Positions 16,156-54,296 of a stretch of 64,000 nucleotides of DNA are shown here, piece by piece (position 1 is the stretch's first letter; the number at the start of each line of letters is the position of its first letter). Source of the stretch: Longimicrobiales bacterium (lineage in GTDB: Bacteria; Gemmatimonadota; Gemmatimonadetes; Longimicrobiales; Gaopeijiaceae); assembly GCA_965211795.1 (NCBI GenBank), contig OZ242973.1, forward strand, positions 2,234,088-2,298,087, given 5' to 3'. The notes beneath the pieces were generated by a model. That model saw only the letters and a list, made by a program, of their open reading frames with translations, was not told where the DNA came from and ran no database searches. The position numbers were made by a program, and so were the translations under genes.

Positions 16156-16214
16156 TCTGTCCAACCGATTCCTGGGTGCTCGTCCATGCTCACCGTCTTC
16201 CCGCACTCGTCGAT

Positions 16215-16255: not shown

Positions 16256-16306
16256 TCTGCGACTCCGCGCGCCTTACGGGCGTTGTCGGCGTTATCCACC
16301 GTCCCA

Positions 16307-19414: not shown

Positions 19415-19475
19415 TCCATCCAACCGATTCCTGATTGACCTGACCGTGCCGGCGGCCGGGCTGTTACCTGCCAAT

Positions 19476-19516
19476 ATGTAAACCGGCGTTGACCATTTGA
19501 CAACTGGAATTGACAT
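19476..19516. promoter_or_regulatory. 41-bp quasi-palindromic AT-rich element, copy 3
   Basis: ATGTAAACCGGCGTTGACCATTTGACAACTGGAATTGACAT. About 62 nt upstream of the ANK-C start. Coordinates are +/-1 nt. Confidence 0.6.
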
Positions 19517-19546
19517 CTGCGACACCTCGCGCGTGAAGCCCACCCA

Positions 19547-22500: not shown

Positions 22501-22588
22501 TCCAGTCGTCGCAGCCTTCCTGCGCGGACGCGGGGAGGGCGGAGAGGGCAAGTGTCAAGGTTGCTGCCAACCGGGCCATCATCTTCAT
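19547..22588 (-). CDS. Giant exported ankyrin-repeat protein, paralog D (1013 aa from M4)
   Basis: The track ORF starts at a TTG (22597). The conserved leader GGTTGGAGCGA-ATG points to MKMMARLAATLTLALSALPASA|QEGCDDW. ANK repeats throughout. Confidence 0.88.
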   Translation of the reverse strand: MKMMARLAATLTLALSALPASAQEGCDDWNTSRFFVDATAETVTACLEAGADIDARAEDGNTPLHFASGSSRDLAVITVLLAAGADVGARNQRNATPLHRAARINSSPAVVAELARAGADLNAQDGEGNTPLHAVRPFGNPRVTHLLLELGADPTLVNDEGQVADPMDCGYWNTETFARVATARATTACLEAGADVNARDDNGVTPLLFATSAPGGSTPGAPASEDPAVVNVLLEAGADVNARDNPGNTALINAAGALVEITRGGMFDLAEDPGIVAALLAAGADVNARSHTTALHQVAAAEDLESVRLLLEAGADIHARDREDRTPLLVAAEYGGFRNPQVLEALVEAGANVNDRNDRGGTVLEYAVRSPADRVSDVVRRLLDLGADANAPDILEVAARQGDNAELIAVLLAAGADANAPSGYLLQSPLHAAAYGGGPEVIATLVAGGAVVDAHDNRGMTPLLRAVEAKMPANVTALIAAGADVHARTWDGHTPLHLAAVWPPRSVGRRDHPREPDTLIVIALAAAGADIDARNDRGETPLHVAKRNRHEPVVDRLVALGADPLAVDDLGRAPRPMICDWMRFDFVTAPWESIIGCLRAGADVHVRNRDGESPLHRWATRGKPDDYPVARVIAAFVEAGADLNARDRRGRTPLYYAAERSADVATEEVASLLASGAAANARDNRGSTPLHIAAGLGRRNKAAIVSLLAAAGADPDATDDGGRTALHIALRTDNPRVAARLIELGADTGAQDDSGNVADPAACARWNTASFFRVASTEVVAACIGEGANVNARSEEDGSLAAGSTPLHFAAAWAPGHEVVGLLVRAGAGVNARDEDHYTPLHRATRMNENAAVTTALVDAGADVEAWTDDFISYHYSWHGTPLHAAAGSNQNPAVTAALLEAGANVHAHSEDVVGTPLHKAALRNRNPEVVRLLVEAGADVNAWGMTYVSCCWSRYRQTPLHLAAQANPAVFLLLLDAGADPAAVDEFGNTPMDYAREEKALQGLEVVKRSGH

Positions 22589-22650
22589 TCGCTCCAACCG
22601 ATTACCGAGGGACCTGACCGTGCCGTGTCCCGTCCGGCTTCAAACCAAAA

Positions 22651-23937
22651 CTACCCACCCCCCCGCCGCAACGGCCACACCGCCACCTGCACCTCCCCCA
22701 GCTCCCCCAACCTCCTCCCCAGCACGTAGTCGGCGCCGATCTCGTCGATAACCATTCCCTGGGGCATCTCCACGTAGCCCAGCACACGGCCCTCGGGATC
22801 GAACACCGTCCACAGACGGCGCGTGATCTCGTCCCCCGGCACGTCGTATTCCCTCACCCAGAGATGATCCAGCGCGTCCGACATGATCGTCGTGAAGGCG
22901 GGAAGGGTCTCGGGGTGCGGCATCTCGTCGAACTGGACGCCGCCTCCCAGCTCCTCGCGCCTGAGCTCGATGAGCGACTCGGTCACCGGAATCGGCGTGT
23001 GGTCGACCCGGACGATCTGGCGCAGTGTTCCATCGGCCGCGTATGCGCGGAGTTCGTACCTGTCGTTGCGGCTGACCACGGCCAGGTCGCGCCAGGCGGC
23101 CGCGTGGACCCTCCGCGAGAAGGCGATGTCCATCCACACCGGCATCCCCCGGTTCTGGAACTCGAAGAACTCGCGGCCGACAAGCGGGGCCAGCGACGCG
23201 ATCCTCACGCCATCGGCGTCCCGGATCTCGAAGACCTGCTCCTGTACGAGCAGACCGCTTCCATGCTCCTGGCGAAGCCAATGGTCGGCCATGAGCGAAC
23301 CGCCGCGAAGGACTGTGATGCTGCGCTCCGGCTGCCCCATCCCAAGCGCGACCACGCGGCCCAGGTTCCCCTCCGAGTCGAAGATCGACACGCCGCGGTG
23401 AGGATAGTGATCCCACGCCGCGATCGAATCGCCCCGCCAGCGCGCGACCGCGTGCAGCTCGTCGAACTCGCCCGGGGCCTCGCCGTAACCGCCCCAGCTT
23501 CGCAGATGCACGCCTTCCGCGTCGAAGACCCGCACCTGGCTGGAGATGCCCTCGGGGACGACAATGCTGCCGTCGGCGAGGGTGGCGGGCTTGCCGACGC
23601 GGTAGAGGAGGTAGGGGGCCTCGCCGTCGGCAGAGCCGATCGTGACGGTGGGGTCGGGGCCGATCTGCCAGCCGAGACGCGAGCCTTCGGGGGGACGGGG
23701 GTTTTCGGCGATGCGGATGTCGGCGCTGTCGCGCAGCAGGAGGGTGGAGAGGAGGGGGGATGTGTCTGGAGTGCAGGCCAGGCTCAGGAGGAGGAGAAGT
23801 CCGACGGTGGGAACGAAGATGGACTCGCGGGTCGCGGCGACGCCGGTCGGGACCGGGTCCGCCGCCTTGGGACGCTCGCGACCGCCGCTCCGAACGGGTT
23901 CCAAGGGCACCGATGGCGTGACCGAACTCGAACACAT
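22651..23937 (-). CDS. NHL/6-bladed beta-propeller-like lipoprotein, paralog 1 (start uncertain)
   Basis: ORF 22651..24036. Hydrophobic lipobox-like segment VGLLLLLSLAC|TPD. GxxPGEF-type blade motif (GYGEAPGEFDELHAV). C-terminus is homologous to gene 30611..32065 and to the remnant at 24009..24245. The upstream part of the track ORF overlaps element copy 4. Confidence 0.6.
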   Translation of the reverse strand: MCSSSVTPSVPLEPVRSGGRERPKAADPVPTGVAATRESIFVPTVGLLLLLSLACTPDTSPLLSTLLLRDSADIRIAENPRPPEGSRLGWQIGPDPTVTIGSADGEAPYLLYRVGKPATLADGSIVVPEGISSQVRVFDAEGVHLRSWGGYGEAPGEFDELHAVARWRGDSIAAWDHYPHRGVSIFDSEGNLGRVVALGMGQPERSITVLRGGSLMADHWLRQEHGSGLLVQEQVFEIRDADGVRIASLAPLVGREFFEFQNRGMPVWMDIAFSRRVHAAAWRDLAVVSRNDRYELRAYAADGTLRQIVRVDHTPIPVTESLIELRREELGGGVQFDEMPHPETLPAFTTIMSDALDHLWVREYDVPGDEITRRLWTVFDPEGRVLGYVEMPQGMVIDEIGADYVLGRRLGELGEVQVAVWPLRRGGG

Positions 23938-23976
23938 GTCAATCATGGTTTCCATTGTGACAACTGCCGTTGACAT
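23936..23976. promoter_or_regulatory. 41-bp quasi-palindromic AT-rich element, copy 4
   Basis: ATGTCAATCATGGTTTCCATTGTGACAACTGCCGTTGACAT, at the 5' end of propeller paralog 1. Confidence 0.55.
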
Positions 23977-24008
23977 TTCATCTCCGTTGCGCCTAACGGA
24001 CGAGAGAA

Positions 24009-24245
24009 TCAGCCTTGTCCCCGTCGAAGCGGCCACACCTGCACCTGTTGCACCCCCAGGTCCCGGATCGCCAGCCCAAGGACGTATTCCTCCCCTATCT
24101 CGAAGATACGCAGTCCCTGCGGCGTTTCAACGTGGCCCAATACACGCCCTTCGGGGTCGAACACCGTCCACAGGGGATGCGGCGTGTCCCGGCCCGGGAC
24201 CCGACCGCGCCATCGCGGTTCGGGGTTGCCGGACCCGCGTCCAAC
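24009..24245 (-). pseudogene. 3' remnant of a third beta-propeller lipoprotein paralog
   Basis: Hand translation: ...VPGRDTPHPLWTVFDPEGRVLGHVETPQGLRIFEIGEEYVLGLAIRDLGVQQVQVWPLRRGQG*. Compare the paralog 1 C-terminus DVPGDEITRRLWTVFDPEGRVLGYVEMPQGMVIDEIGADYVLGRRLGELGEVQVAVWPLRRGGG*. Begins 2 nt after the vapC stop and has no N-terminal part. Confidence 0.7.
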
Positions 24246-24247
24246 CG

Positions 24248-24637
24248 TCAGGGCAGATCCCGCAGCGGGATTCCGAGCGCGCGGGCGGCCCTCACCATTC
24301 GACGATCGTAGCTGGCGATTTCAAGGCGCTGGCCCCGGTCCCGGAGAAACTGGCATGACGCGAGGTGCAGCGCGTCGAGCGTGCGCACGGATACCGGAAA
24401 CGGATCGAGGGCGCGGGCCAATACGACGGGTGCCAGCTCGAGCAAAGAGATGCGGGCGATCACTGCCTGCGCGGCCTCCGCGCGCGACGCCGTCGCCTCT
24501 CGCGCGTGCATGCGCGTCCAGATCTCGTACTCCAGCAGACGGCTCGAAACGAGGGTTTCGGTCCACAACGAAGCCGGGGGTCGCCGGTCTTCCGCGAACA
24601 AGTGGGCCAGGGCGACCGAGGTGTCGACGTAGATCAC
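24248..24637 (-). CDS. vapC: PIN-domain toxin (VapC-type)
   Basis: 129 aa. MIYVDTSV (Asp5), EYEIW, TLDALHLAS acidic residues in the PIN pattern. ATGA overlap with the upstream antitoxin. Confidence 0.8.
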   Translation of the reverse strand: MIYVDTSVALAHLFAEDRRPPASLWTETLVSSRLLEYEIWTRMHAREATASRAEAAQAVIARISLLELAPVVLARALDPFPVSVRTLDALHLASCQFLRDRGQRLEIASYDRRMVRAARALGIPLRDLP

Positions 24638-24927
24638 CGGTCGCGTCGGTCGCCCTCCAGTTCACTGAGCAACACGGACAGCGCGGCCTCCGGAGGCCCG
24701 CCACGGGGGGGCTCGGATCCCGGAGAGAGCGCGGGCGTCAACCAACCCTTCCGCACCGCATCGGCAAGCATGGCGTCCGCCAGGATGGGACTCCTTGTCT
24801 CTCGCGGAGGGCCGATTTCGGCTACGACGCGGCCCCGGTCCGTGACGAGAACGGTCTCGCCACCGGCCGCCAGCCGCACGTATTCGCTGAGCCTGCTGTT
24901 CAATGCCTTGATTCCGACGGATCGCAT
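24634..24927 (-). CDS. vapB: Phd/YefM-type antitoxin partner of VapC
   Basis: ORF 24634..24963 trimmed to M13. MRSVGIKALNSRLSEYVRLAAGGETVLVTDRGRVVAEIGPP is a typical prevent-host-death N-terminus. Confidence 0.7.
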   Translation of the reverse strand: MRSVGIKALNSRLSEYVRLAAGGETVLVTDRGRVVAEIGPPRETRSPILADAMLADAVRKGWLTPALSPGSEPPRGGPPEAALSVLLSELEGDRRDR

Positions 24928-25110
24928 GGAGGTAACGTAGCTACTTGTAGCTCCCTCGGTCAATCCTTGGGACGCGCGACCCGTGCTTGGCTTCCTCTGC
25001 CCTGGCTCTTTCCGCCGTTCAGTAGCGCCATGAGTCGCACGAGGTTGCCGTCCCGCACGGGATCGCCTCCCACCCTTCCCCGGCTGACAACCGGCTCCAA
25101 GTGCGAGGAA

Positions 25111-25151
25111 ATGTCAACTTCTGTTTACATAATGACAACTCTGATTTACAA
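25111..25151. promoter_or_regulatory. 41-bp quasi-palindromic AT-rich element, copy 5
   Basis: ATGTCAACTTCTGTTTACATAATGACAACTCTGATTTACAA. Lies between the ANK-E stop (25184) and vapB (184 nt upstream of its start). Confidence 0.5.
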
Positions 25152-25183
25152 AGAGTGAACCGCTGCCGACCCATTTGCGCCTC

Positions 25184-28100
25184 CTACCCTGGCTCGTTCC
25201 CCATCTCCCGGACCAACTGCTTCACCACCTCCAGTCCCTGCAACCACGGATTCCGGACTGCGTAATCCATCGGTGTCCTACCCTCCCGGTCGAGTGCCGC
25301 CGGATCGGCACCCAACACCAGCAGCTTCGGGAACGCAACCGGATTGCGAAGGGCGGCGATATGAAGCGGCGTCCGTTCGTAACCGCCGCGCGCATTCACA
25401 TCCGCCCCGGCCCGGACGAGCAGTTCCAGCACGGCCGGGTCGGGGTTGGTGGATGCGGCCCAATACAGAGGGGCCGCATCGGGCTCGTACTCGTAATCCA
25501 GGTCGGCGCGGGCATGTACGTCGGCCCCGGCCGCCAAAAGCACCGCGACGGCCGCGGGGCCGTTCCAGACCACGGCCTCGTGCAGGGGACTCCGGTTGCC
25601 CGCGTACTCGGACACACCATCGTTCCCGCCCCAGGGATTCAGGGAGATCCGCCTGTGTATGAACAATCCCGGATCTTCGGCGTCGTTGCCCCCTCTGGCA
25701 TCCACATCCGCACCGTGCTCCAGCAAGGTGGTCAGCACTGCGGGATTCCGGTTGCCACTCGCGGCTTCATGCACTGCGGTCCGGCCGCCCGCGAGCCTGG
25801 AAGTCACGTCGGCCCCCCGTCCGAGCAGCTCGGCCACGATTGCCGGGTTCGGGTTGGTGGCGGCCTGGTGAAGGGGGGTTCGTCCCAGGGCCGCGACCGC
25901 GTTCACATCCGCGCCTGCATCGGCAAGGGCGGCGATGACGGCGGGATTCTCGTTGTCGGCGGCGGCGTAGTGCAACGGGGTGTGGTTGTTCCGGTCCCGC
26001 GCGGCGACATCCGCTCCGGCACCAATGAGTAGCGTGATCACGGCCGGGTCCGCGGTCCACGAGGATGCCAGGTGAAGAGGTGTGTGGCCACCTGCATACT
26101 CCCGGTGCCGTCTGGCGTCGGGGTCCCACAGGAAAAACCTCCGTTCGATTTCGGTAGCCACTTCGGCCCCGGCCTCGATACAGTCGGCCACGATGTCGGC
26201 GGTTGCGCGACGGAAGAACTCCCGCGTCGGCCACTCCTCACACCCCGGCGGATCGGCAACCGAGACCGAATCATCCGACGGAGCCGGATCGGCCCCGAGT
26301 TCCAGCAAGCGGGCGATGACCGCGGAATTCCCCCCACGGGCGGCCCTCTGGAGTGCGGTACCGCCCTCCCCGTCGCGCGCGTTCACGTCCGCGCCGGCAT
26401 CTACCAGCAACTCGACAAGGTCGGGGCTGCCCCACTGGTAGTAGCCCGGTGGAAAGGCACGTGCCTGTGCGGGTCCGGCAGCCAAATGCAACGGCGTCGC
26501 ACCGTGATCGTTCCTCGCGTTCGGGTCGGCCGCGGCCGCGATGAGCGTGCGGATCGCATCGGATGCGAAGGAATGGTTCCACTTGAGGAGCTTGATCACC
26601 GCATGGAGCGGCGTGTCGCCGTGCGGATCACGCGCGGTTACGTCCGCGGCCGCCCTCAGGCAGCTCTCGAGAGTGGCGACCGGGGCGACCGCGAACAGAT
26701 TGGACTCTGCCCAGTCACACACCAGGGGGACGACGGAGCCCTCTTCGAGAGCTGCCGGATCGGCCCCGAGTTCGAGCAGCTTAACGGCAAGCCGCCAGCG
26801 TGCCTGCCTTGTGGCCAGCTCCAGCGGGCTCGGGCCCGATTCACTGCGTGCGTCGACGTCCGCACCGGCACGAACCAGAGCGCCGAGCATGGCCGTGTCG
26901 CGGCGGACTGATTCTTCGCGCGGGACATGAATGTTCTTTCGCCTCGTCCGTTCACTCACGTACGGACGTATCCCCCAGTTGTCCACAGCGGGCAGTTCTT
27001 CCCGTAACGGCTCCTCCCATGAGATCACCAGGTGCAGGGGCGTCGCGCCGTCGGCGGTACGCGCGCCCGAATCCGCGCCACCTCGCAGGAGCGCGTCCAC
27101 CTGGTGGCGGTGGCGTCTCGCAATGGCCCTGTGCAGGGGTGTCTCTCCCGCTCCATTGCGCGCGTCGACTTCGGCCCCGGCCTCCAGCAATGCGGTTGTT
27201 CCGATGTTGTCGTCTCTCCCCCACCACACTGCGTGATGAAGGGGAGTGTCACCGCTCTCGTCCCGGGCGTTCACTTCCGCACCGGCAGCGATGAGCGCCA
27301 GGATCCGATCTGGAGTGCTCCCGGGGCGAAACGCAGCGGCGTGAAGCGGGCGCTCTCCGTGCCGACCCTCCGCATTCGGGTCCGCGCCCATTCCCAGCAG
27401 CCTGCGGACAAGTGCCTCGTCCCCCCGTCCGGCCGCCTCGTGAATCGGGGCTTCGCGGTCGTCGTCCGTCCCATTGACGTCCGCCCCGGCGTCGAGCAGC
27501 GCGGCGATGGTGAGGTCGTTCCCGGCAGTTCTGTCGAGCGCCCGAAGCAATGGGGTGTTGCCCCCGGAGTCACGTGCGTTCAGGTCCGCGCCTGCACCGA
27601 CAAGCAACGTGATGATATCGGGATACCTGTTCTCGGCGGCTCGATGCAGCGGGGTCACGCCCCAGTCGTTCCGTGCCCGTGGGTCCGCTCCCGCCTCCAG
27701 CAAGAGGGCCACCACGGACGGATCGCCGACCCATGCCGCGAAGTGCAGGGGCGTGTCACCACCGGTGCCAGGTGAATTGATCTCCACCCCGGCTACCAGG
27801 CATTCGGCAACGGCATCCGGAGTGGCCGCCCGCATGAAGACACGGGTGTTCCACTGCGCGCACTCGTCGGCCGGATCGGCGGGATAAGCGATCTCGCCGC
27901 GGTGGTTTCGTGCCGTGGGGTCGGCACCCAACTCCAACAGCTTCTGGACGATGGCCTCCCCTGCCGGTGACAACCGCCGTCTTGAGGACCATGCCGCGTG
28001 CAACGGCGTGTTGCCGATCGCATCGGGCGAGTCGACATCCGCCCCAGCCACCACCAGCGCGGCGACGGTCTCGGCGCGGCCACGCTCGGCAGCCTCGTGC

Positions 28101-33550: not shown

Positions 33551-36500
33551 ATGACGAAGCGTGACAGGGTGAACGCACCAGGAGCCATGCCACGGGTCCC
33601 AGCAGCCTCCCAGCGAGTGCCCCGGCCGCGCATCCCCCTCGCCATGGCGTTTGCAATGTGGCTCGCCAGCTGCGGCGGTGACCCGACGCCTCCCGTCCCA
33701 GCGAACCGGGCACCCTTGGCGCTTGGCACGATGCCCGCCCAGCAAATCAGCGTCGGCGACACCGCGACGGTGGATGCGTCGGAGTACTTCACCGACCCTG
33801 ACGGCGACGCGCTGCAATACACCGCAGCGAGTTCCGACGATGAGGTGGCCACCTCCTCCGTGTCGGGAAGCATGATCGCAATCGCGGCCTTGGCCAAGGG
33901 CACCGCCGCCCTCACCGTAACGGCCACCGACCCGGAAGGCCTTTCGGCCCAGCAGAGCTTCGAGGCCACGGTGCCCAATCGGGTACCCTTGGCGGTTGGC
34001 ACGATGCCCGCCCAGCAAATCAGCGTCGGCGACACCGCGACGGTGGATGCGTCGGAGTACTTCACCGACCCTGACGGCGACGCGCTGCAATACACCGCAG
34101 CGAGTTCCGACGATGAGGTGGCCACCTCCTCCGTGTCGGGAAGCATGATCGCAATCGCGGCCTTGGCCAAGGGCACCGCCGCTCTCACCGTAACGGCCAC
34201 CGACCCGGAAGGCCTTTCGGCCCAGCAGAGCTTCGAGGCCACGGTGCCCAATCGGGTACCCTTGGCGGTTGGCACGATGCCCGCCCAGGAAATCAGCGTC
34301 GGCGACACCGCGACAATGGATGCGTCGGAGTACTTCGCCGACCCTGACGGCGACGCGCTGCAATACACCGCAGCGAGTTCCGACGATGAGGTGGCCACCT
34401 CCTCCATGTCGGGAAGCATCATCGCAATCGCGGCCTTGGCCAAGGGCACCGCCGCCCTCACCGTAACGGCCACCGACCCGGAAGGCCTTTCGGCCCAGCA
34501 GAGCTTCGAGGCCACGGTGCCCAATCGGGCACCCTTGGCGGTTGGCACGATGCCCGCCCAGCAAATCAGCGTCGGCGACACCGCGACAATGGATGCGTCG
34601 GAGTACTTCACCGACCCTGACGGCGACACGCTGAGCTACCGAGCTTCAAGTTCCGACACTTCGATGGTTATTGTCTCCGCCTCGGGGAGTGCGATCGCAA
34701 TCACGACTGTGACCAAAGGCACCGCCGCAGTCACCGCAACGGCCACCGATCCGGAAGGCCTTTCGGTCCAGCAGAACTTCGAGGTCACCGTGCCCAACCA
34801 AGCCCCGGTCGCGGTAGGCAGCATTCCCGCGTTGGAACTCACGACCGGGCGCTCGGTTGAGTTGAATGTCGCATCGTACTTCAGTGATCCCGACGGTGAT
34901 GCGTTGACGTACTCGGCGTCGGTTTCCGACTCCGCCGTCGCGAGCGCCTCGATGGCTGGCTCGGTCGTCACGATCCGCGGCTTGCGGGAGGGAAGCGTCG
35001 CCGTCATCGTCACGGCCACCGACGGGGACAACATGAGCGCCATGCAGGAAGCTCCGCTCACCGTGTCCCTGGTCGACAGAATCGTCATCAATCCTGCCCG
35101 GCCGCGAGTTTTCAGCCCGGGCGAGGAGGTGCCGCTCGCGGCGGTTGTGTTCGACATAAACGGGGCGACCATTCAGGAGGCGACCGTTGAATGGTCGTCC
35201 AGCGTTCCGGCGGTGGCGACGGTGTCGCCGGAGGGAGTGGTCGCCACCGTGGCCCAGGGGACCGCGTCGGTAGCCGCTGTATCGGGGCCGGCGTCGGCAA
35301 CCGTGCGGATCGCAGTGGGTCCCGCATCGATCCGGCGGGAATTCGAAGCGCTTCGCACAATCTACGACCAGATGGGCGGACCGGCCTGGAGAGAATCGAC
35401 GAATTGGTTGACGAATCACGCGCTGGACACCTGGTCACGAGTCGAGATCAATCGCGCCGGGTTCGTGACCGGACTCCGTCTGGCGAAGAACGACCTATCC
35501 GGCACGCTTCCTTCCGAGATCGGGGCGTTCGCGAGGCTCAAGCACCTGGACATGGACCTCAACCGACAAGTCGCCGGCCCGATCCCTCCCGAGATCGGTG
35601 ACCTGGAATCCCTCGAGTTTCTGAAGCTCAGTTCCACCGGCCTCAGCGGTCCGATTCCCGGCGAGATCGGCAACTTGGCACGGCTTAGGGATCTGCTGCT
35701 CCATTGGACGAAGCTGACCCGCATTCCGCCCGAAATCGGCAATCTCACCAACCTGACGCACTTCCACGCCTTCCTGAGCGAGTTCGAGGGTCCGTTGCCC
35801 GCGACGATTGGCAATCTCGACAACCTCAAGGAACTCTGGCTCAACGGAAACAGGTTGTCCGGCGCCATTCCGCCGAAAATCGGCGAGATGACGGCGCTCG
35901 AGAAGCTGCATCTGCATGACAACTTGTTCAGTGGTTCGATCCCCCCCAGCCTCGGCACCGCTCCGAATCTTTCGGTCCTGCGGCTGTCCGGGAACCGGCT
36001 GGCAGGACAGGTGCCGCCCGAACTCGGCGGGGCCCGGAATCTGCAGTGGCTGGCGCTGGAAGGGAACGAGCTTTCAGGCCCGATCCCCCCCGAGATCGCT
36101 GATTTGACGAGACTCGAGACGCTCGAGCTGCAGGAAAACGGCTTCAGCGGTCCGATCCCGCCGGAGTTCGGTGGCGCCACTGCCCTCACCTCGCTAAACC
36201 TCTCCCAGAACCGGCTCAGCGGAACGATTCCGGCGGAGTTGGGGAAGCTGACCATGGTGGAGCGTGTCTTGCTCGCCGACAACCCGGACCTTACCGGCAC
36301 TCTGCCTGCCGAACTCACCGGGATGCAGAACCTCCAGGTGCTGTTTCTGGGCGGGACGGATGTGTGCGCACCGACCGACCGGGAGTTTCTGACGTGGCTT
36401 CACAGCCTCTTGCAGGTACACGTCCGGCGGTGTGTGGACACCGATGCCAGCGTCGCCTACCTGACCCAGGCCGTGCAGTCGCCGCACTACCCCGTCCCCC

Positions 36501-37948
36501 TGATCGCCGGCGATTCGGCGCTGCTGCGAGTGTTCGTGGTATCCGGGACCGGTGCGGAGGCGAACGTGAGCATTCCACCGGCGCGAGCGACCTTCTACCT
36601 GGGAGGCGCGGAGGTCGATGTGGTCGATCTCGACGGCGTGAGCACGCCGATTCCGGCCGTCCTCGATGAAGGCGGTCTGGAACTGTCGCTCAACGCGATG
36701 ATCCCCGGGTCGGTGATCCAACCCGGGCTGGAACTGGTCGTGGAGATCGATCCCGAGGGCACCCTCGATCCGTCGCTGGGGCTCGCCGAGCGCATTCCCG
36801 AGTCGGGCCGCGCACCGGTTAGCGTCGTGGCGGTCCCGACCTACGAACTCACCTTCATCACCTTCCTGTGGACCGAGGACCCGGATTCCGCGCTGCTCGC
36901 CAAGGTGAACGGCCTGACGCCGGATTCGCCGCTTCTCTGGGCAACGCGAGAGTTTCTCCCGGTCAACGAGATCAGCGTGGCCCATCACGACCCCATTTGG
37001 CTCGACGAAAACCCATCCGCGGGAATCATGGATCACATCATCGATGCGACGTACGCAGCCAAGCAAGCCGCCGGAGGCCGGGGCCACTGGGTGGGGGTGT
37101 GGAGCGGGTGCTGTGGCGGTGCGTCCTTCCAGATCCAGACGGCCGGGGTCGGCCTGGAGCCGACGGCGCCAGACCGTTTCTGGCAGAACAACAATGTGAT
37201 CGCTCATGAACTCGGGCACCTCATGACGCTGCCACATGCTCCTTGCAACGTCGGAGATCCCGATCCCAACTTCCCATTTCCGAACGGTTCGATCGGCTCG
37301 TGGGGCTATGACATGCGGTCCAACGAACTACGAGCTCCAACGAGCCCGGAGGTCATGAGCTATTGCGGCGAACGGGAAAAGTGGATCAGCGGGTTCTATC
37401 ACCAGCAAGCCCTCGGTTGGCGGCTAAGCAGCGGCACCTCCGAGTCGCAGCCGGGACGTCCGGTACGGTCGCTGATGTTGTGGGGCGGACTCCGTCCGGA
37501 CGGGGAGCTGGTGCTCGAGCCGGCGTTCGTATTGGACGCGCCCCCCACCATGGACATCCGGTCGGGGGCTTACCGCATTACCGGACTGGACCGACAGAGC
37601 CGCGAGGTATTCTCGTACTCGGTGTCAATGAGTCCCGTGGACGGCGGTGGCGCAGCGTTCGCGCTCATGGTGCCGGTGCGACCGGAATGGGACGCTACCC
37701 TGGACCGCATCGAGTTGGTGGGCCCCGCGGGAAGCGTCGAGATCCGGAGGGACGGGCCGATGGCCTCGGTCCTCCTGACGGACCCCCGGACCGGGCGGAT
37801 ACGAGGCTTCCTGCGCCACGGCCTCGATGTCGGAGTTCTCTCCGATAGCGCGCGAGCCAATCGCCTGCTCAGCGCGCTCGTGCCCGAACCCGGGTTGGCA
37901 GCGCAAGTCAGCAGGGGCATTCCCCCAGCGGAAGTCTGGAAGCGATAA
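33551..37948 (+). CDS. 1,465-aa lipoprotein: 5 cadherin-like/Ig-like repeats + Big_2 + ~13 plant-type LRRs + metzincin-like Zn-protease domain
   Basis: Lipobox WLAS|CGG. Five 91-aa repeats carry YFTDPDGDALQYTA. A Big_2-like segment spans about 35080-35320. 24-residue LRRs (LxxLxLxxNxLSGxIPPEIGNL) span about 35470-36370. HELGHLMTLPH (37204-37236) is followed by EVMSY. Confidence 0.85.
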   Translation: MTKRDRVNAPGAMPRVPAASQRVPRPRIPLAMAFAMWLASCGGDPTPPVPANRAPLALGTMPAQQISVGDTATVDASEYFTDPDGDALQYTAASSDDEVATSSVSGSMIAIAALAKGTAALTVTATDPEGLSAQQSFEATVPNRVPLAVGTMPAQQISVGDTATVDASEYFTDPDGDALQYTAASSDDEVATSSVSGSMIAIAALAKGTAALTVTATDPEGLSAQQSFEATVPNRVPLAVGTMPAQEISVGDTATMDASEYFADPDGDALQYTAASSDDEVATSSMSGSIIAIAALAKGTAALTVTATDPEGLSAQQSFEATVPNRAPLAVGTMPAQQISVGDTATMDASEYFTDPDGDTLSYRASSSDTSMVIVSASGSAIAITTVTKGTAAVTATATDPEGLSVQQNFEVTVPNQAPVAVGSIPALELTTGRSVELNVASYFSDPDGDALTYSASVSDSAVASASMAGSVVTIRGLREGSVAVIVTATDGDNMSAMQEAPLTVSLVDRIVINPARPRVFSPGEEVPLAAVVFDINGATIQEATVEWSSSVPAVATVSPEGVVATVAQGTASVAAVSGPASATVRIAVGPASIRREFEALRTIYDQMGGPAWRESTNWLTNHALDTWSRVEINRAGFVTGLRLAKNDLSGTLPSEIGAFARLKHLDMDLNRQVAGPIPPEIGDLESLEFLKLSSTGLSGPIPGEIGNLARLRDLLLHWTKLTRIPPEIGNLTNLTHFHAFLSEFEGPLPATIGNLDNLKELWLNGNRLSGAIPPKIGEMTALEKLHLHDNLFSGSIPPSLGTAPNLSVLRLSGNRLAGQVPPELGGARNLQWLALEGNELSGPIPPEIADLTRLETLELQENGFSGPIPPEFGGATALTSLNLSQNRLSGTIPAELGKLTMVERVLLADNPDLTGTLPAELTGMQNLQVLFLGGTDVCAPTDREFLTWLHSLLQVHVRRCVDTDASVAYLTQAVQSPHYPVPLIAGDSALLRVFVVSGTGAEANVSIPPARATFYLGGAEVDVVDLDGVSTPIPAVLDEGGLELSLNAMIPGSVIQPGLELVVEIDPEGTLDPSLGLAERIPESGRAPVSVVAVPTYELTFITFLWTEDPDSALLAKVNGLTPDSPLLWATREFLPVNEISVAHHDPIWLDENPSAGIMDHIIDATYAAKQAAGGRGHWVGVWSGCCGGASFQIQTAGVGLEPTAPDRFWQNNNVIAHELGHLMTLPHAPCNVGDPDPNFPFPNGSIGSWGYDMRSNELRAPTSPEVMSYCGEREKWISGFYHQQALGWRLSSGTSESQPGRPVRSLMLWGGLRPDGELVLEPAFVLDAPPTMDIRSGAYRITGLDRQSREVFSYSVSMSPVDGGGAAFALMVPVRPEWDATLDRIELVGPAGSVEIRRDGPMASVLLTDPRTGRIRGFLRHGLDVGVLSDSARANRLLSALVPEPGLAAQVSRGIPPAEVWKR
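33704..35068 (+). repeat. Coding tandem repeat, 5 x 273 bp (91 aa); copies 1-3 nearly identical
   Basis: Units at 33704, 33977, 34250, 34523 and 34796. Copies 1-3 differ by only a few nucleotides, and copies 4-5 diverge progressively. Confidence 0.9.
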
Positions 37949-38280
37949 CCGGCATGCCGGGGGTGGCCAGGCCCACCCAAGCCAGCAGATCCACGGAATA
38001 GTCCGCAGGTGATGACATGTCGAGACCGGAGACCGGGTGCTCGGTCGGCCGTCGCCGGTTGCGGGGGACAGCCTCGCCGCCCGGTGCCCAAGGTGCGGAG
38101 TGGCGACGAACCCCTGACTCACGAGGTCGCCTCCCGTGTCGCGCCGTGGGCACAAGAGTCGCTGACGGGAACGTCCTCCCGGCCCGCGGTGGCCTGTCAA
38201 TCGTTCGTCCAAGACGTCTGCCGCCCTGTGGAGTGTCAAACCCGAGCCAGGCGGAGACCATGGGTGTCGACCATGGAGCA

Positions 38281-40635
38281 CTACGCCTCGTCGGGGTTCG
38301 CGGTCCGGTAGCCGACGCCTCGCTCGGTGAAGATGTAGGTGGGTGCGGCCGCGTCGTCGCCAAGTTTAGCGCGGAGCTGCTTTACCGTGGTGCGGACGCG
38401 ACTGGTGTCGCGCACGTTGTGGCGTCCCCAGACCTGGCGCAGCAGGGCACCCGTGGTGACGACCCGTCCCCGGTTGATCGCGAGGATGTGCAGCAGGTCG
38501 AATTCCTTGGCCCTGAGCGTCACCGGGCGGCCGGAGACGGTCACCCGCCGTTGGCCGGGCTCGATGGCCAGGTCGCCGAGGACGAAGGGCGCGGCGCCGT
38601 CCCGGCCCCTGAGCGCGGCCCGGATGCGCGCGACGAGCTCGGTCGGCGAGAACGGCTTGACGATGTAATCGACCGCGCCGCTCTCGAGCGCCCTGGCGAT
38701 CGTCTCGTCCCGCCCGTAGGCGGAGATGAAGATGACCGGCAGTTCGGCGAGCTGGGGGAGCCGGTGCATCAGCTCGATGCCGTCCGCGCCGGCGAGCATC
38801 AGGTCCAGGAGGACGAGGTCGGGACGCTCGGCACGGATGATGCCGGGGAGTTCGTCCGGATCGCCGGCCAGGAGCGGGGCGTAGCCCGCCTCCGAGAGGG
38901 TGTCCCCCACGTAGCGTAACGTCTTCGGGTCGTCGTCCACCACCAGGATCCGCGGACTCTCACCTCTCTCGGCGGGCCGGCGCGGCCGGCCGGCCACCGG
39001 CGCCGCCGCCGCGACGGAGTCCCCGGCCGCCGGGATCGTGAAGGTGAAGCGGGCACCCAGGCCGGCCCCTTCGCTCTCGGCGCTGATGCGGCCGCCGTGC
39101 GCCTCGATCAGACCCTTGCAGATCGCGAGACCGAGTCCGGTGCCTCCCTCGTGTGTCCCGCCTTCGCCCGGCTTCAGTCCGGCACGCTTGCGGAAGAGGT
39201 GCGGCAGCAGGTCCGGCGGGATTCCGCGGCCTTCGTCGCAGACCGAGATCGCGACGCAGTCGCCCTCCCCGGCCGCTTCGACCCGGATGGGAGAGGATGG
39301 GGGAGCGTTCCGGGCCGCGTTCGCGAGCAGGTTGTTCAGCACCTGAACGATCCGTTCGCGGTCGGCCAGCACGGGCGGCAGGTCCGGCGGGATATCGATG
39401 AGAACCGCGTGCCGGCCGCCGCCGCTCAAGAAGTTGGACCGGGCCCGGTCGAGGAGCCGGGCCACGATCACGGGCCGGGGCGACACCGTGAGCGTGCCCG
39501 CCTCGATGCTGCCCGCGTCCAGGAGGTTCGCGATGAGCCCGCGCATGTGGTCGGCCTGTCCGTCGATGATGCGGAAGAACTGGAGCATCTCGGCCCGGGA
39601 CGGGACCGATGCCGAGGACAGCACGGTCGTCGTCGAGCCCTTGACCGAACTCAGCGGCGCGCGGAGCTCGTGGCTCACCAATTCCAGGAACTCGGCCCGC
39701 TGCCGCTCCAGCTCCTCCAGGGCCGCGAGGTCCTGCATCGTGACCACGACCGTGTCGACGTCCCCGTCCGGCAAGCGGATCGGCGTGACGTTGATCAGGG
39801 TCCGGACGCTCCGGCCGTCGGGCAGGGACAGCTCGATCTCCTCGGCCCGCAGCGCCTCCGCGTTCTCGAGCTGCGCGGCCAGCGGGAACTCCTGGAGCGA
39901 GATCTCCCTTCCGTCGGCGCGCCGCCACGCCACCAGTTCGAGCAGCTCCTCCGGCCGCTGGCCCGCGTTGCGCAGCACGTCGACGATGCGCCGCATCTCG
40001 CGGTTGAAGTAGACCGCGCGGCCGGTCGCGGCCTCGAGGACGACGACCCCGACCGGCGAGGTCTCGACCAGCGCCTCCAGATTGGCCCGGGCGCGCTCCA
40101 GCTTCCCGTGCGTGCGCGCGTTCGCGATCGCCGTGGCCGCCTGCGACGCGAAGAGGACCAGGATCTCCTCGTCCTCCGCCGTAAACGCCTTGCCGTCCTC
40201 CTTGTCGCTGAGGAAGAAGTTGCCGACGTGTTTGCCGAGGTGGTGCATCGGCGTCCCCTGCAGCGTCTGCGAGCCCCAGGGAGTCGGGGAAAGGGCGAGT
40301 GAGCCGAGGTAGCCGGGCAGGTCCGCCGCTCGCAGCGGTGCCGGGAGGTCGCGCAGGTGCTCGAAGAGGCGCATTGCGTCGGGCCATTCCATCATCCGCC
40401 GGCGCTCCCCGGCGGAGATGCCGCCGGTGACGAAGTCCTGGATCTCTCCCCGCTCGTCGATCGTCGTGATCACCCCCAACCGGGCGCCGGTGAGCTCGCG
40501 GGCGCTCTCCACGACCTCCTCCAACACCGTGGCAAGGTCCAGGCTCCGGCTGATGCGCAGGATCGCCGCGCTCAACCGCGAGGTGCTGTCGTCGGGGCCC
40601 CGCCTCTCCGGTCCGGCCGGGTTCTGATCGTTCAA
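38281..40635 (-). CDS. Fused sensor histidine kinase / OmpR-type response regulator (GAF-PAS-HisKA-HATPase-REC-winged helix), no TM segment seen
   Basis: 784 aa. H-box VSHELRAPLSSV. N/G boxes NLLANAARNAP, DEGRGIP, GTGLGLAICKGLIEAHGG. REC: RILVVDDDP...LVLLDLMLAG...DYIVKPF. wHTH: LRAKEFDLLHILAINRGRVVT...YIFTERGVGYR. Confidence 0.88.
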   Translation of the reverse strand: MNDQNPAGPERRGPDDSTSRLSAAILRISRSLDLATVLEEVVESARELTGARLGVITTIDERGEIQDFVTGGISAGERRRMMEWPDAMRLFEHLRDLPAPLRAADLPGYLGSLALSPTPWGSQTLQGTPMHHLGKHVGNFFLSDKEDGKAFTAEDEEILVLFASQAATAIANARTHGKLERARANLEALVETSPVGVVVLEAATGRAVYFNREMRRIVDVLRNAGQRPEELLELVAWRRADGREISLQEFPLAAQLENAEALRAEEIELSLPDGRSVRTLINVTPIRLPDGDVDTVVVTMQDLAALEELERQRAEFLELVSHELRAPLSSVKGSTTTVLSSASVPSRAEMLQFFRIIDGQADHMRGLIANLLDAGSIEAGTLTVSPRPVIVARLLDRARSNFLSGGGRHAVLIDIPPDLPPVLADRERIVQVLNNLLANAARNAPPSSPIRVEAAGEGDCVAISVCDEGRGIPPDLLPHLFRKRAGLKPGEGGTHEGGTGLGLAICKGLIEAHGGRISAESEGAGLGARFTFTIPAAGDSVAAAAPVAGRPRRPAERGESPRILVVDDDPKTLRYVGDTLSEAGYAPLLAGDPDELPGIIRAERPDLVLLDLMLAGADGIELMHRLPQLAELPVIFISAYGRDETIARALESGAVDYIVKPFSPTELVARIRAALRGRDGAAPFVLGDLAIEPGQRRVTVSGRPVTLRAKEFDLLHILAINRGRVVTTGALLRQVWGRHNVRDTSRVRTTVKQLRAKLGDDAAAPTYIFTERGVGYRTANPDEA

Positions 40636-40703
40636 GGCTCCACTCCCTGTCTGCCGGGTCGCGCCGCCCCCGCAGCGGCCGTCCGCAGGACCGTTACAAG
40701 GGT

Positions 40704-40771
40704 GAAATCGTCCCGTGGCAATAAATCACTACCGTCACACAGTAAGTTGAATTATTCTCACAGTCAACACA
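40704..40771 (-). promoter_or_regulatory. ~70-bp upstream element B (shared with 33401..33470)
   Basis: GAAATCGTCCCGTGGCAATAAATCACTACCGTCACACAGTAAGTTGAATTATTCTCACAGTCAACACA. Starts 69 nt upstream of the start codon at 40635. CACAGTA (40738) and CACAGTC (40759) are spaced 21 bp apart. Confidence 0.6.
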
Positions 40772-40837
40772 CGCAGGATTGCTTGTATTTAGTGAGCGCT
40801 TCGTCTTGGGTCGCGGGGCGGGCGGGTCCTGCACGAC

Positions 40838-41030
40838 CAACTACACGGCCGAGGTGGACAACGACGTGGGCCGGGTGACGGATCGAGGGGACGCCGAACG
40901 ACACGGAATCGACGGTCGAATACCAGGGTGCCGGCGGCACGGCGCTCACCGACGCGGACGACATGGAGGACGGCTTCCAGGTCGACCTTGGCTTGGGCAG
41001 GAACGTCATCAGGGCGAATAACACCGCAGC
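40838..41030 (+). pseudogene. Possible frameshifted fragment of a cadherin-like beta-sandwich domain gene
   Basis: Two plus-strand frames read NYTAEVDNDVGRVT and ESTVEYQGAGGTALTDADDMEDGFQVDLGLGRNVIRANNTAA. No start codon. Abuts the tRNA. The family guess comes from motif memory only. Confidence 0.25.
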
Positions 41031-41053
41031 AATAGCTTACATTTTTCCCACAA

Positions 41054-41137
<84 letters not shown>

Positions 41138-41239
41138 TATTCCCGGTAAGATCGCCCCACTGCCAATCCCCTTCAAGGCGACTTACGCACGACTTCACGC
41201 CCCTCGCTGACCCCAGCACGCTTATCTTGGACGAAAAAA

Positions 41240-44806: not shown

Positions 44807-45385
44807 TCAACGAACGGGCGATTGCGCTCTCTCGAGCCGCTCGATGAGCGCCGCGGCGGCGGCCAGGCCGTCCACCACCCGCACGCCTTCCTCGACCCGG
44901 CCCTCCTCCCCGGCACCGTGACCCGTCCGCACCAGGATCCCGGTGCCGCCGAGGGTCTGCGCCGGCAGCACATCGCTCCGCTTGTCGCCGATGTAGTACG
45001 AACCGGCCGTTGCGAGCTCCAGGTCGGCTGCGGCCCGGCGGTACATGACCGGGCTCGGCTTGCGGCAGGTCGTGTCCGGGTCGCCGCCGGGGCCGTCGGG
45101 GCAGAAGTAGGTCCCGTCCACGACGACCCCGGCACCGGCGAGCTGCCGTTCCACCTCGGCCGCCACGCGATGGTAGTCGGCCAGGGTGTAGAGCCCCCGT
45201 CCGATCCCCGACTGGTTGGTGACGATGACGAGCGCGAACCCCATCTCGCGCAGCTGCAGGAGCGCGTCGGTTGCGCCGGGAATGAGGGTAACGCGGGCCG
45301 GATCGGCAATGTAGTGATGATCCTCGATGATCGTCCCGTCGCGGTCCGCGAAGACGGCACGGCGAGGAGACGACGGCGCCTTCAC
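44807..45385 (-). CDS. gmhB: HAD-IIIA phosphatase, GmhB-like (D,D-heptose 1,7-bisphosphate phosphatase family)
   Basis: 192 aa. FADRDGTI (DxDxT), VTNQSGIGRG, CRKPSP, GDKRSD. Confidence 0.7.
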   Translation of the reverse strand: MKAPSSPRRAVFADRDGTIIEDHHYIADPARVTLIPGATDALLQLREMGFALVIVTNQSGIGRGLYTLADYHRVAAEVERQLAGAGVVVDGTYFCPDGPGGDPDTTCRKPSPVMYRRAAADLELATAGSYYIGDKRSDVLPAQTLGGTGILVRTGHGAGEEGRVEEGVRVVDGLAAAAALIERLERAQSPVR

Positions 45386-46794
45386 TCCGCCTCCCCGCCG
45401 GCCTCCTCCAGCGAGCCGAGCGCCCCTACCACCGCCGCCTCCTCCCCCGGCGAGATCGTGCGCAGATCAAGCAGCATGCGCCCCTGCCGGCTGCGCGCAA
45501 TCACCGGCGGGTCATGGGCGCGCAGCGCGGCCATCCATCGCTCGGCGGCGTCCCCGGCGTCGATTTCGAGCACCGCCGTCTCCAGTCGCGCGTCGGGGAA
45601 GGTCCCCCCGCCCACCACCGACCGCCCCCGCGACACCTCGGCCGCCAGCGGTGGCGCTCCACGTTCCGCCCTCAGCGCGGCCACCCTCTCCAGCAGCGCC
45701 CTCGCCCGGCCCCCCACTTCCTCCACCGGCGCGGCGATCATGCGCAGCACCGGAATCCGCCTCATCGCCCGGCCGTGGTCCCGGTACAGCGCCAGCGTCG
45801 CCTCAAGTCCGGCCAGCGTGACCTTGTCGCAGCGAAGGGCCCGGCACAGCGGGTGCGCCTTCGCCCGGGCCACACCGGCGCTCGTCCCGGCCAGGATTCC
45901 CGCCTGCGGCCCGCCGAGCAGCTTGTCCCCCGAGAAGGCGACCAGATCGATCCCGGCGGCGACGCTCATGGCGGGCGTGGGCTCGTCGGGCAACCCCAGT
46001 TCGGCGCTGTCGACCAGCAGTCCCGATCCCAGGTCGTGGATGACGGGAACGCCGGTCTCGGCTCCGAGCGCGACCAGTTCGTCGAGCCCGGTCTCCTCGG
46101 TGAACCCGGTCATCGAGAAGTTCGAGCGGTGCACCTTGAGGATCGCGCCCACCCCCCCGCTCGTGATGGCGCGTGCATAGTCGGCGAGGCGCGTGCGGTT
46201 GGTCGTCCCGACGGTGACCAGACGCGCCCCCGCCGCCTCCACCACCTCCGGAATCCTGAAGCCGCCGCCGATCTCGACGAGCTCGCCGTGCGACACCGCG
46301 ACCCCCTTCCCCGAGGCGAACGCCGTCAGCGCCAGCGCCACCGCCCCCGCGCAGTTGTTGACCACCAGGGCGGCCTCGGCGACGGTCAGCTCCCGCACCA
46401 GGTCGGTACAGTGCACGTAGCGCGAACCGCGGTCGCCGGTGTCCAGGTCGAACTCGAGGTTGCCGTACCCGGCCGCGCGGGCCATCGCCTCGCGCGCTTC
46501 GGCGGCCAGGGGGGCGCGGCCCAGGTTGGTGTGCAGGATCACGCCGGTGGCGTTGACCGCGGGGAGGAGCGAGGGGGTTTCGGCGGCCGCGATCTCGCGT
46601 CTCAGAAGCTCCGCGTAACCGTCATCGGATGCAGGCAGCGGCAGGCGGCCCGCGCGGACCTCGTCCAGTAGGGTGCGAAGACGGGAGGTCACCCAGTCGC
46701 GGCCATGCGATTCGGCAAGCACGCGGCACCAGGGACGGGTCAGGAGGCGATCGACGCCCGGGATCGCGCGGCGGTGATCACGGTGGGCGGGCAT
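45382..46794 (-). CDS. selA: L-seryl-tRNA(Sec) selenium transferase
   Basis: 470 aa. NATGVILHTNLGRAPL, NNCAGAVALAL, ELVEIGGGFRIPEV, KVHRSNF, PLP-lysine motif FSGDKLLGGPQAG. Confidence 0.88.
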   Translation of the reverse strand: MPAHRDHRRAIPGVDRLLTRPWCRVLAESHGRDWVTSRLRTLLDEVRAGRLPLPASDDGYAELLRREIAAAETPSLLPAVNATGVILHTNLGRAPLAAEAREAMARAAGYGNLEFDLDTGDRGSRYVHCTDLVRELTVAEAALVVNNCAGAVALALTAFASGKGVAVSHGELVEIGGGFRIPEVVEAAGARLVTVGTTNRTRLADYARAITSGGVGAILKVHRSNFSMTGFTEETGLDELVALGAETGVPVIHDLGSGLLVDSAELGLPDEPTPAMSVAAGIDLVAFSGDKLLGGPQAGILAGTSAGVARAKAHPLCRALRCDKVTLAGLEATLALYRDHGRAMRRIPVLRMIAAPVEEVGGRARALLERVAALRAERGAPPLAAEVSRGRSVVGGGTFPDARLETAVLEIDAGDAAERWMAALRAHDPPVIARSRQGRMLLDLRTISPGEEAAVVGALGSLEEAGGEAE

Positions 46795-54291: not shown

Positions 54292-54296
54292 CGGTT

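Follow-up and report, generated by a model that had tools for sequence, protein, structure and literature searches.

A 64,000-nucleotide stretch of contig OZ242973.1 from a Longimicrobiales bacterium of the Gemmatimonadota (hereafter the window) encodes, at positions 33,551 to 37,948, a 1,465-residue protein in which a lipoprotein signal, bacterial Ig-like repeats and plant-type leucine-rich repeats (LRRs) are joined to a C-terminal protease module of the metzincin clan. Our analysis suggests that this protein, which we call the target, is probably a lipid-anchored, multi-module metzincin zinc endopeptidase, with peptidase family M66 as its closest described family, that is targeted by its LRR and Ig-like modules to (glyco)proteins of the host or matrix, which it would cleave. 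Of this reading, the lipobox pattern and the domain content are observed; the substrate and the location on the cell are inferred. The target is a somewhat elaborated new member of a very large family that is labeled in databases and is unstudied.

The original prediction had described a 1,465-aa open reading frame (ORF) with a lipobox (WLAS-C), and the ORF listing and translation bear this out. Other ORFs over the same DNA are antisense or out-of-frame artefacts typical of ~65% G + C DNA. The modules follow in the order lipobox, five Ig-like repeats, Big_2, 12 LRRs with caps, β-sandwich, metzincin and C-terminal β domains, and are located as follows.

33551..37948, +, coding sequence of the modular lipoprotein metalloprotease, 1465 aa, stop codon included (ATG start, ORF listing)
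33551..33673, +, signal peptide with lipobox L-A-S-C (Cys41), GGAGCC before the start codon (sequence)
33704..35080, +, five 91-aa Ig-like repeats of the Big_9/He_PIG type, a DPDGD motif in each (Pfam, Tandem Repeats Finder, translation, pairwise DNA identity)
35081..35335, +, Big_2 bacterial Ig-like domain, ~aa 511-595 (Pfam PF02368, 63.6 bits)
35336..36436, +, LRR domain with N-terminal W-rich cap, 12 LRRs of the plant-specific type and C-terminal cap (Cys939, Cys961) (Pfam, PDB sequence matches, register)
36443..36835, +, β-sandwich (Ig/CARDB-like) before the catalytic domain, ~aa 965-1095 (AlphaFold2 strands; CARDB and MG-domain Foldseek matches)
36836..37450, +, metzincin catalytic domain, ~205 aa (Pfam Peptidase_M66, domain model, Foldseek)
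37205..37237, +, zinc-binding motif HELGHLMTLPH, aa 1219-1229 (H1219, E1220, H1223, H1229) (conservation in 267 modules)
37355..37366, +, Met-turn M1269-S-Y-C1272, with EVMSY at aa 1267-1271 (conservation in 267 modules)
37451..37945, +, C-terminal β-sandwich region with the conserved tail S-R-G-I-P-x4-W-K/R-R (AlphaFold2 strands, alignment A1)

The protease module and its nearest described relatives

The metzincin-like protease that had been proposed from HELGHLMTLPH and EVMSY is intact in the target and conserved across 267 related modules. H1219, E1220, H1223 and H1229 of the zinc site are kept in 263, 258, 264 and 262 of these modules, respectively, and Met1269 in 266, and in a 36-member alignment H1219, E1220, G1222, H1223, L1227, H1229, M1269, Y1271 and C1272 are invariant or nearly so. 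Cys1232 and Cys1272 form a further conserved pair (246 and 264 of 267 modules). The threonine found where the motif usually has glycine had been singled out as a peculiarity, a point that does not survive the family comparison: this position is Ser in 152 modules, Asn in 53 and Gly in 39, together 244 of the 267, so that a residue other than Gly is the rule and Thr itself is rare. A non-catalytic adhesin was ruled out, as all catalytic residues are present and conserved.

The AlphaFold2 model of aa 951-1465 (model mce2e7f482af8; mean predicted local distance difference test score (pLDDT) 82.3, predicted TM-score 0.82) shows a β-sandwich followed by an α/β catalytic domain with HELGH on the active-site helix, a C-terminal helix and more β-sandwich. 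The β-rich region noted earlier from the sequence thus corresponds to a confident β-sandwich, with strands at residues 18-157 of the 515-aa query and pLDDT mostly 83-97, while the C-terminal strands lie at residues 355-504. Met1269 is located between the last strands and the C-terminal helix, and the core is irregular only in a loop of 25 residues (238-262 of the query) modeled with low confidence. In alignment A1 the C-terminal tail (aa 1452-1465) has S504, G506 and P508 invariant and W513 nearly invariant (≥90%); this tail matched no known sorting-domain profile, and an NCBIfam scan of the protein gave no match to a type IX secretion system or other C-terminal sorting domain, nor to any protease family (an M6 domain at E 0.065 is noise). 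Modeled alone, the catalytic core (aa 1090-1300; pLDDT 83.4) adopts metzincin topology. Membership of the metzincin clan is secure: the zinc motif, the Met-turn and the fold are all present.

Within the clan, the evidence leads first to M66. Pfam Peptidase_M66 (PF10462) matches aa 1214-1274 with 26.7 bits against a cut-off of 20.6 (E 3.4e-6), and a Foldseek search of the PDB with the 515-aa model places StcE (3UJZ) first, with an E-value of 3.7e-12, probability 1.0 and TM-scores of 0.42/0.36. It is followed by a sialic acid esterase (8F9R; E 2.4e-5, TM only 0.16), the Akkermansia glycopeptidase Amuc_1438 and adamalysin II, with the best adamalysin at E 3.3e-4. With a profile match, a structural match and the two histidines of HExxH kept in 263-264 of 267 modules, the protease call stands, and a module that could not be assigned to a family by eye is now placed, by Pfam and by AlphaFold2 and Foldseek, nearest to M66.

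There is a real possibility, though one that we rate as doubtful, that the module lies outside M66 proper and founds a metzincin family of its own, with a compact, adamalysin-like core, in which case the M66 similarity would be motif-level and the substrates would be ordinary proteins and not mucin-type O-glycoproteins. Several results tell against our preferred assignment in this way. The Pfam match covers only profile positions 193-255, that is 63 of 306. Foldseek with the core alone returned, at probability 1.0, adamalysin II, ADAM8, ADAM33, fragilysin, ulilysin and CpaA (TM 0.44-0.57); the best neighbors were M12B adamalysins, ADAMs and snake-venom metalloproteinases (TM 0.50-0.57), followed by fragilysin, CpaA, TACE and ulilysin, with StcE outside the top 50 matches. 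Alignment of the family profile by hhalign to StcE residues 66-898 (stcE from pO157) gave an E-value of 3.7e-4 and a probability of 36% over 51 columns around the zinc site. A phmmer search of PDB sequences with the C-terminal 515 residues gave no relevant match to a solved structure, and a profile search of the same sequences gave, besides LRR matches that stem from the last repeat, only weak similarity at the zinc site to snake-venom and serralysin proteases, with no StcE among the best 60. In addition, neither AlphaFold2 model contains a StcE-type insertion (INS) domain in the ~205-aa core.

What speaks for M66 nevertheless is that the whole-module Foldseek search separates StcE from the next match by seven orders of magnitude, that the Pfam M66 match lies above the curated cut-off in many relatives as well as in the target, and that the family and StcE have an extended motif in common, HExGHNxxLxH…WG[YW]D, which hhalign pairs as AHELGHNMxLxH…WGYD in the family and SHEVGHNYGLGH…WGWD in StcE. 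M66 is therefore the nearest described family by motif, Pfam and module layout, with the target a distant, compact-core branch that has no INS domain. Because the core itself is nearer to the M12B adamalysins, mucinase-type specificity cannot be assumed.

The M66 mucinases StcE of Escherichia coli O157:H7 and TagA of Vibrio cholerae resemble the target in HExGH…LxH with its third histidine, the downstream WG[YW]D and the Met-turn. Like the target, StcE has an Ig-like β domain before the catalytic domain and a β domain after it, combines catalysis with a separate targeting module, and is annotated as a lipoprotein on pO157. The targeting module of StcE is the accessory binding module X409, by which it is steered to its substrates (PMC8249670). 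The differences are substantial: identity is ~12%, the target has no INS domain and a compact adamalysin-like core, the usual Gly of the motif is Thr in the target and Ser or Asn in most of its relatives, and the plant-type LRRs and Big_9 repeats fused in the target are missing from StcE. StcE leaves the cell by type II secretion, whereas the target appears to be lipid-anchored, and cleavage by StcE and TagA is restricted to densely O-glycosylated mucin-type substrates (PMC7542363).

Two further systems bear on the layout. CpaA of Acinetobacter (M72), whose four Ig-like repeats help form the substrate cleft (PMC7542363), combines tandem Ig-like repeats with a C-terminal metzincin as the target does, and its structure (6O38) is among the matches of the target core. 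However, it belongs to another MEROPS family, has no LRRs, is secreted and not lipid-anchored, and carries a different type of Ig repeat. The adamalysins, ADAMs and snake-venom metalloproteinases (M12B), the best structural neighbors of the core, include the membrane-tethered ADAM sheddases, which follow the same logic of adhesion modules combined with a metzincin. A further resemblance is the conserved pair Cys1232/Cys1272, which flanks the active-site region of the target. Unlike M12B, the target lacks the cysteine-switch pro-domain and the disintegrin domain, its accessory domains are N-terminal to the protease, and the reprolysin Pfam family had no significant match in the protein.

The N-terminal modules and the extent of the family

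The lipoprotein signal consists of an n-region with R22, R25 and R27, a 13-residue hydrophobic stretch, IPLAMAFAMWLAS, and C41 (WLAS-C41), and matches, as a pattern, the signal peptidase II lipobox [LVI][ASTVI][GAS]C. Similar lipoboxes (…ACGD, …SCGE) are present in 37 of 261 family members.

All five predicted 91-aa repeats, which start at aa 52, 143, 234, 325 and 416, carry YF-x-DPDGD-x-L-x-Y, and the array was recovered independently by Tandem Repeats Finder (273 bp x 4.0 copies, 93% match) and by Pfam. At the DNA level repeats 1-3 are mutually 97-98.5% identical, repeat 4 is 83% identical and repeat 5 55-59%, a gradient that indicates growth of the array by recent tandem duplication. The earlier label of cadherin-like or dystroglycan-type Ig folds holds in part. 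Big_9 (77.5 bits, cut-off 23.6), He_PIG (37.1, cut-off 24) and PKD (37.4) score above their cut-offs, and Cadherin_4 (21.3) falls under its own (25.1); the repeats are therefore Ig-like and of the Big_9/He_PIG type, with "cadherin" only loosely apt. The Big_2-like domain that had been predicted behind them was confirmed by Pfam. The N-terminal 620 residues alone have >2,500 homologs, mostly Palauibacter "Ig-like domain-containing proteins". Many Palauibacter Ig-repeat homologs of window positions 33551-35410 carry precomputed matches to Pfam PF01457 (Peptidase_M8, leishmanolysin), and the same Ig repeats may be fused elsewhere to this second kind of metzincin.

The LRR domain contains 12 repeats of 23-25 residues, starting at aa 639, 663, 688, 712, 735, 759, 783, 807, 831, 855, 879 and 903, with the consensus LxxLxLxxNxLSGxIPxEIGxL in register throughout and Pfam LRR_1, LRR_14, LRR_4 and LRR_8 scoring 55-92 bits. 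About 13 plant-type repeats had been estimated; the register gives 12, plus the caps. Plant receptor-kinase ectodomains lead the PDB sequence matches of this region, FLS2 (1.6e-144) at the top followed by GSO1, MIK2, PEPR1 and BRI1, with Leptospira LRR proteins and SHOC-2 far lower, so the "plant-type" label is correct. A cap-like W-x(n)-W segment had also been predicted: the W-rich segment is present at aa 613-629 and has no Cys pair, and the plant cap profile LRRNT_2 (PF08263) has no Pfam match at E≤1 in the protein. On the other side the array closes with a Cys-containing cap at aa 928-961 (C939…C961), of which Cys961 is kept in 257 of 267 modules.

Fusion of LRRs to enzymes has precedent. 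In the Xanthomonas effectors XopL, XopAC/AvrAC and XopAE, and by analogy in the IpaH/SspH E3 ligases, an LRR is combined with a catalytic domain, and in such LRR-enzyme effectors the plant-type or similar LRR selects the target for the fused domain. XopAE, XopAC and XopL are indeed the best NCBIfam matches of the LRR region, all under their family cut-offs. Type III secretion systems inject these effectors, whose catalytic parts are ligase or Fic domains, whereas the target has a lipoprotein signal and a protease. The Leptospira LRR lipoproteins (the LIC10831, LIC11098, LIC_11051 family; matches 4U06, 4U08 and NF047464) are host-adhesion proteins that bear LRRs as the target does, but they lack a protease domain and belong to another LRR subclass.

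The protease module recurs very widely. A search of a 5.8-billion-protein collection with the C-terminal 515 residues, in which only 8,000 word-sharing candidates were scored, found at least 424 homologs with E-values down to 1e-231; those that a source names are called either "M66 family metalloprotease" (by NCBI for some) or "hypothetical protein" and come from Gemmatimonadota, often Candidatus Palauibacter. A profile of the module matched 10,323, 5,923 and 2,025 of 1.84 billion cluster representatives at E≤1e-3, 1e-10 and 1e-30, respectively, with the E≤1e-3 tier including matches to the terminal LRR alone; the majority of the proteins matched at E≤1e-30 have LRRs. The best 150 profile matches are mostly proteins of 800-2750 aa with the module at the C-terminus, and Pfam annotation of six long members gave Big_2, long LRR arrays and M66, one of them with two protease modules. 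Judged by these thousands of homologs and their E-values, the architecture is far beyond chance.

The rarity implied by the original prediction is thus not upheld, since the architecture recurs in this huge modular family. A unique domain combination was likewise ruled out: by local hidden Markov models, Big_9-type repeats are present, N-terminally and in 1-8 copies, in 52 of 265 module-bearing proteins retrieved (eight copies in P0265, seven in P0293, six in P0271 and four in P0298). Two complete protease modules in one polypeptide were seen in P0241 (2036 aa), in the order LRR-protease-LRR-protease, and in P0242 (1882 aa).

A search of the GTDB, with one genome per species, gave at least 184 stretches that code for a relative, of which the best 80 fall in Gemmatimonadota (Longimicrobiales), Latescibacterota, Acidobacteriota, Chloroflexota and Gammaproteobacteria, with 2-4 loci in several genomes and a best identity of only 48%, and in all 79 genomic loci LRR-like sequence lies beside the protease module. 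The family genomes include named sponge species, Palauibacter ramosifaciens, P. irciniicola and P. rhopaloidicola, and bin names (SB06xx, RHO, COS) point, like the Palauibacter epithets, to sponge metagenomes. The closest protease module (P0001) is 69% identical and belongs to a 588-aa protein of bin RHO1_bin_56 in an unrelated gene context. The RHO prefix of that bin points to the sponge Rhopaloeides odorabile.

A variable segment at tRNA-Ser and a hybrid kinase neighbor

The target lies, together with one other gene, in an 8.5-kb segment that two close relatives, represented by the metagenomic contigs L083 and L085, lack. The features of this segment and its surroundings are listed by position.

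6544-9447, +, 968-aa protein of the Peptidase_S9 (prolyl-oligopeptidase) family
28608-29882, -, AAA_21/AbiEii-type ATPase
30614-32065, -, NHL/DUF5128 β-propeller
32535..41050, strand not applicable, variable (accessory) segment with the target and a hybrid sensor kinase/response regulator gene (comparison of the window with L083 and L085 by blastn and tblastn)
33361..33478, +, first copy of an AT-rich element, ~73 nt upstream of the target start codon (inverted-repeat pair I1, alignment)
38281..40635, -, hybrid sensor kinase/OmpR-type response regulator (HK-RR), GAF-PAS-HisKA-HATPase-REC-Trans_reg_C (Pfam)
40690..40808, -, second copy of the AT-rich element, ~55 nt upstream of the TTG start codon of the HK-RR gene (same repeat pair, alignment)
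41054..41137, -, tRNA-Ser (TGA), its 3' end forming the right-hand edge of the variable segment (ARAGORN)
45385-46794, -, selA (selenocysteine synthase)
53296-56193, -, 966-aa protein with a C-terminal FGE-sulfatase domain

Identity in purH between the window and the relatives is 93% for L083 and 87-88% for L085, and the flanking DNA aligns at 84-90% identity, ending at 32,534 and restarting at 41,051; neither the target nor the HK-RR gene had a match in the two contigs by blastn or tblastn. Gene order is kept on both sides, with valS…selA…purN-purH-tRNA-Ser on one and NHL propeller-AAA_21 on the other, and at the same spot the relatives carry ~6 kb of other genes (L083) or ~1 kb (L085). The same tRNA-Ser stands at the same breakpoint in both. 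G + C content is 0.64-0.66 in the segment against 0.68-0.71 in the flanks. No integrase was found, a search at the opposite edge of the segment for att-like direct repeats matching the 3' end of tRNA-Ser was likewise negative, and the window contains no second copy of the gene or its modules. As the target is absent from close relatives and the segment is bounded by tRNA-Ser, the gene is accessory and occupies its own tRNA-linked hot-spot.

This position also separates it from the ankyrin-repeat (ANK) array, with which it had been assigned to a single island: the conserved AAA_21 and NHL genes intervene between the target and the ANK genes (9,748-28,594), and because no ANK gene follows AAA_21 in L085, the array appears to be a separate variable feature. 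The array consists of five giant ankyrin-repeat proteins of 1016-1136 aa, encoded nearly back to back and all on the minus strand (9748-13005, 13105-16206, 16310-19543, 19550-22597 and 25187-28594). ORFs between these genes at ~22.6-24.0 kb had no Pfam match, nor did two large ORFs further on, at 54801-58925 (+) and 59719-63075 (-).

The target and HK-RR genes are convergent, and each is preceded by a copy of an element of ~115 nt; the copies are homologous, ~72-82% identical and in the same orientation relative to their genes. A 24-nt core, TACTGTGTGnnGnTAGTGATTTAT, is perfectly kept and occurs only these two times in the window, against 0 expected. The similarity runs through to the ribosome-binding site and start codon (GGAGTTGGAGCCATG vs GGGAGTGGAGCCTTG), which supports 33551 as the true start of the target. 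The elements are a candidate common promoter/operator; alternatively, they would be imperfect terminal inverted repeats of a two-gene cassette. As the same element precedes both genes, joint regulation is suggested and appears plausible, with the HK-RR protein, a sensor that carries an OmpR-type DNA-binding output domain, as a possible regulator of the target gene. In L011 (8188-9435) and L014 (1-693), HK-RR homologs of 54-58% identity lie ≤4 kb from LRR-protease family members, and in L014 the two genes diverge from a common intergenic region. The element itself is absent from the 85 fetched loci. A scan of JGI metagenomes for the core found two near-identical contigs that share only the 24 nt, which is about chance level for the collection size; one that was checked, L086, has only 3 ORFs of 80 aa or more. 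A scan of 33,200-41,200 for σ70-type promoters found nothing, and terminator-like sites were below expectation.

Proposed function and its alternatives

On the mechanism that we propose, the type II signal peptide motif (LAS-C41) would direct export, N-terminal acylation and tethering to the membrane. The five Ig-like repeats and Big_2 would form a stalk that projects the remainder from the membrane and may add adhesion, with the DPDGD motifs likely to bind Ca2+. The 12-repeat LRR solenoid, connected to the protease by the conserved two-Cys cap, would recognize the ligand or substrate, as suggested by LRR-enzyme fusions; by analogy with XopL and XopAC and with X409 of StcE, it would be the LRR that selects the substrate. 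The C-terminal module, whose residues and fold are observed, would hydrolyze the bound protein by means of Zn2+ coordinated by H1219, H1223 and H1229, E1220 serving as the general base and Met1269 lying under the metal.

The substrates are most likely to be extracellular, namely proteins or glycoproteins of the host or matrix, because the family is common to phyla whose metagenome-assembled genomes (MAGs) derive in large part from marine sponges; a gene content typical of host association and the range of the relatives would favor the same substrates. ANK, LRR and cadherin genes are over-represented in sponge MAGs and have moved laterally between taxa, according to a study that does not mention proteases (Robbins et al., PMC8163846). 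That the target works on proteins of the host or matrix at the cell surface we hold tentatively, as a proposition that falls just short of probable. The preferred reading as a whole is weakened by the facts that the sponge association is drawn from relatives of the target genome, that our literature search found no paper on LRR-M66 fusions or on M66 with a sponge or symbiont, and that the regulatory link comes from one common element and two other adjacencies among 79 loci.

A nutritional role, in which a cell-bound scavenging protease would catch protein particles or dissolved glycoproteins with its Ig and LRR modules for uptake and would have no specific host role, seems to us on the unlikely side. 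The Palauibacterales are inferred chemoorganotrophs that are also found in sediments and saline soils, and the paper describing them makes no mention of LRR-protease genes (PMC10469786). The family also appears in MAGs that are not obviously from sponges, and the window itself contains a prolyl-oligopeptidase-family gene (6544-9447). Yet the usual partners of LRR solenoids are specific protein ligands, the many giant ankyrin-repeat genes of the window are a hallmark of host-associated genomes, and no transporter or peptidase-uptake genes are adjacent; the accessory hot-spot and the recently duplicated repeats fit fast-evolving interaction genes better than housekeeping nutrition.

A different difficulty for a surface protease is posed by the lipid anchor, since lipoproteins of diderms may face the periplasm, which is their default topology; the target would then be an inner- or outer-membrane lipoprotein acting on the envelope proteins of the bacterium itself. 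We regard this as very unlikely. Across 53 proteins of the protease and Ig-repeat families that have a lipobox, +2 and +3 after the Cys are each Asp or Glu in 53%, against a background of 12%, which may be a lipoprotein sorting signal in Gemmatimonadota. Its sense could be retention or export: acidic residues after the lipidated Cys signal inner-membrane retention in Enterobacteria, but surface export in Bacteroidota, which belong to the same FCB group. The target has Gly-Gly at these positions, and such long chains of Ig repeats, Big_2 and LRRs, here of 1400 residues, are typically those of surface adhesins. Pro-rich sequence often follows the acidic residues in the lipobox-bearing relatives.

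An assembly chimera, or an adhesin with a decayed protease remnant, is scarcely credible: three near-identical 273-bp repeats and many paralogous modules could mislead assemblers, and an exact-sequence look-up of the 1465-aa protein found no record elsewhere, but the Ig-Big_2, Big_2-LRR and LRR-protease junctions all recur in independent genomes and long-read chromosomes and all catalytic residues are intact, which leaves the number of copies of repeats 1-3 as the one possible uncertainty.

Returning to the reading of the target as an LRR/Ig-targeted surface protease, a bolder extension, which we consider distinctly unlikely as it stands, would make the LRR-metzincin family a set of laterally exchanged, fast-diversifying targeted "sheddases" that clip surface or matrix glycoproteins of the sponge host, with some or all copies switched by a dedicated hybrid sensor through the upstream element. 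The features that would fit are the variable LRR and Ig modules, the several copies per genome, the tRNA-linked hot-spots and the spread over at least five phyla. If true, such clipping could serve, for example, to avoid phagocytosis or to remodel the mesohyl.

As a result on a single gene the present finding is modest, and its interest, which is moderate, lies at the level of the family. ANK, LRR and cadherin-like proteins are the best-known genomic signature of sponge symbionts and are usually treated as passive binders. In the present protein an LRR array is fused directly to a metzincin with an intact active site, and the combination is no curiosity, as the family profile matches ~2,000 cluster representatives at E≤1e-30 from several symbiont phyla. 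Should proteins of the host or matrix prove to be cleaved by them, these enzymes would constitute a concrete and testable effector class for the persistence of symbionts in an animal that eats bacteria, and a new source of LRR-targeted (glyco)proteases.

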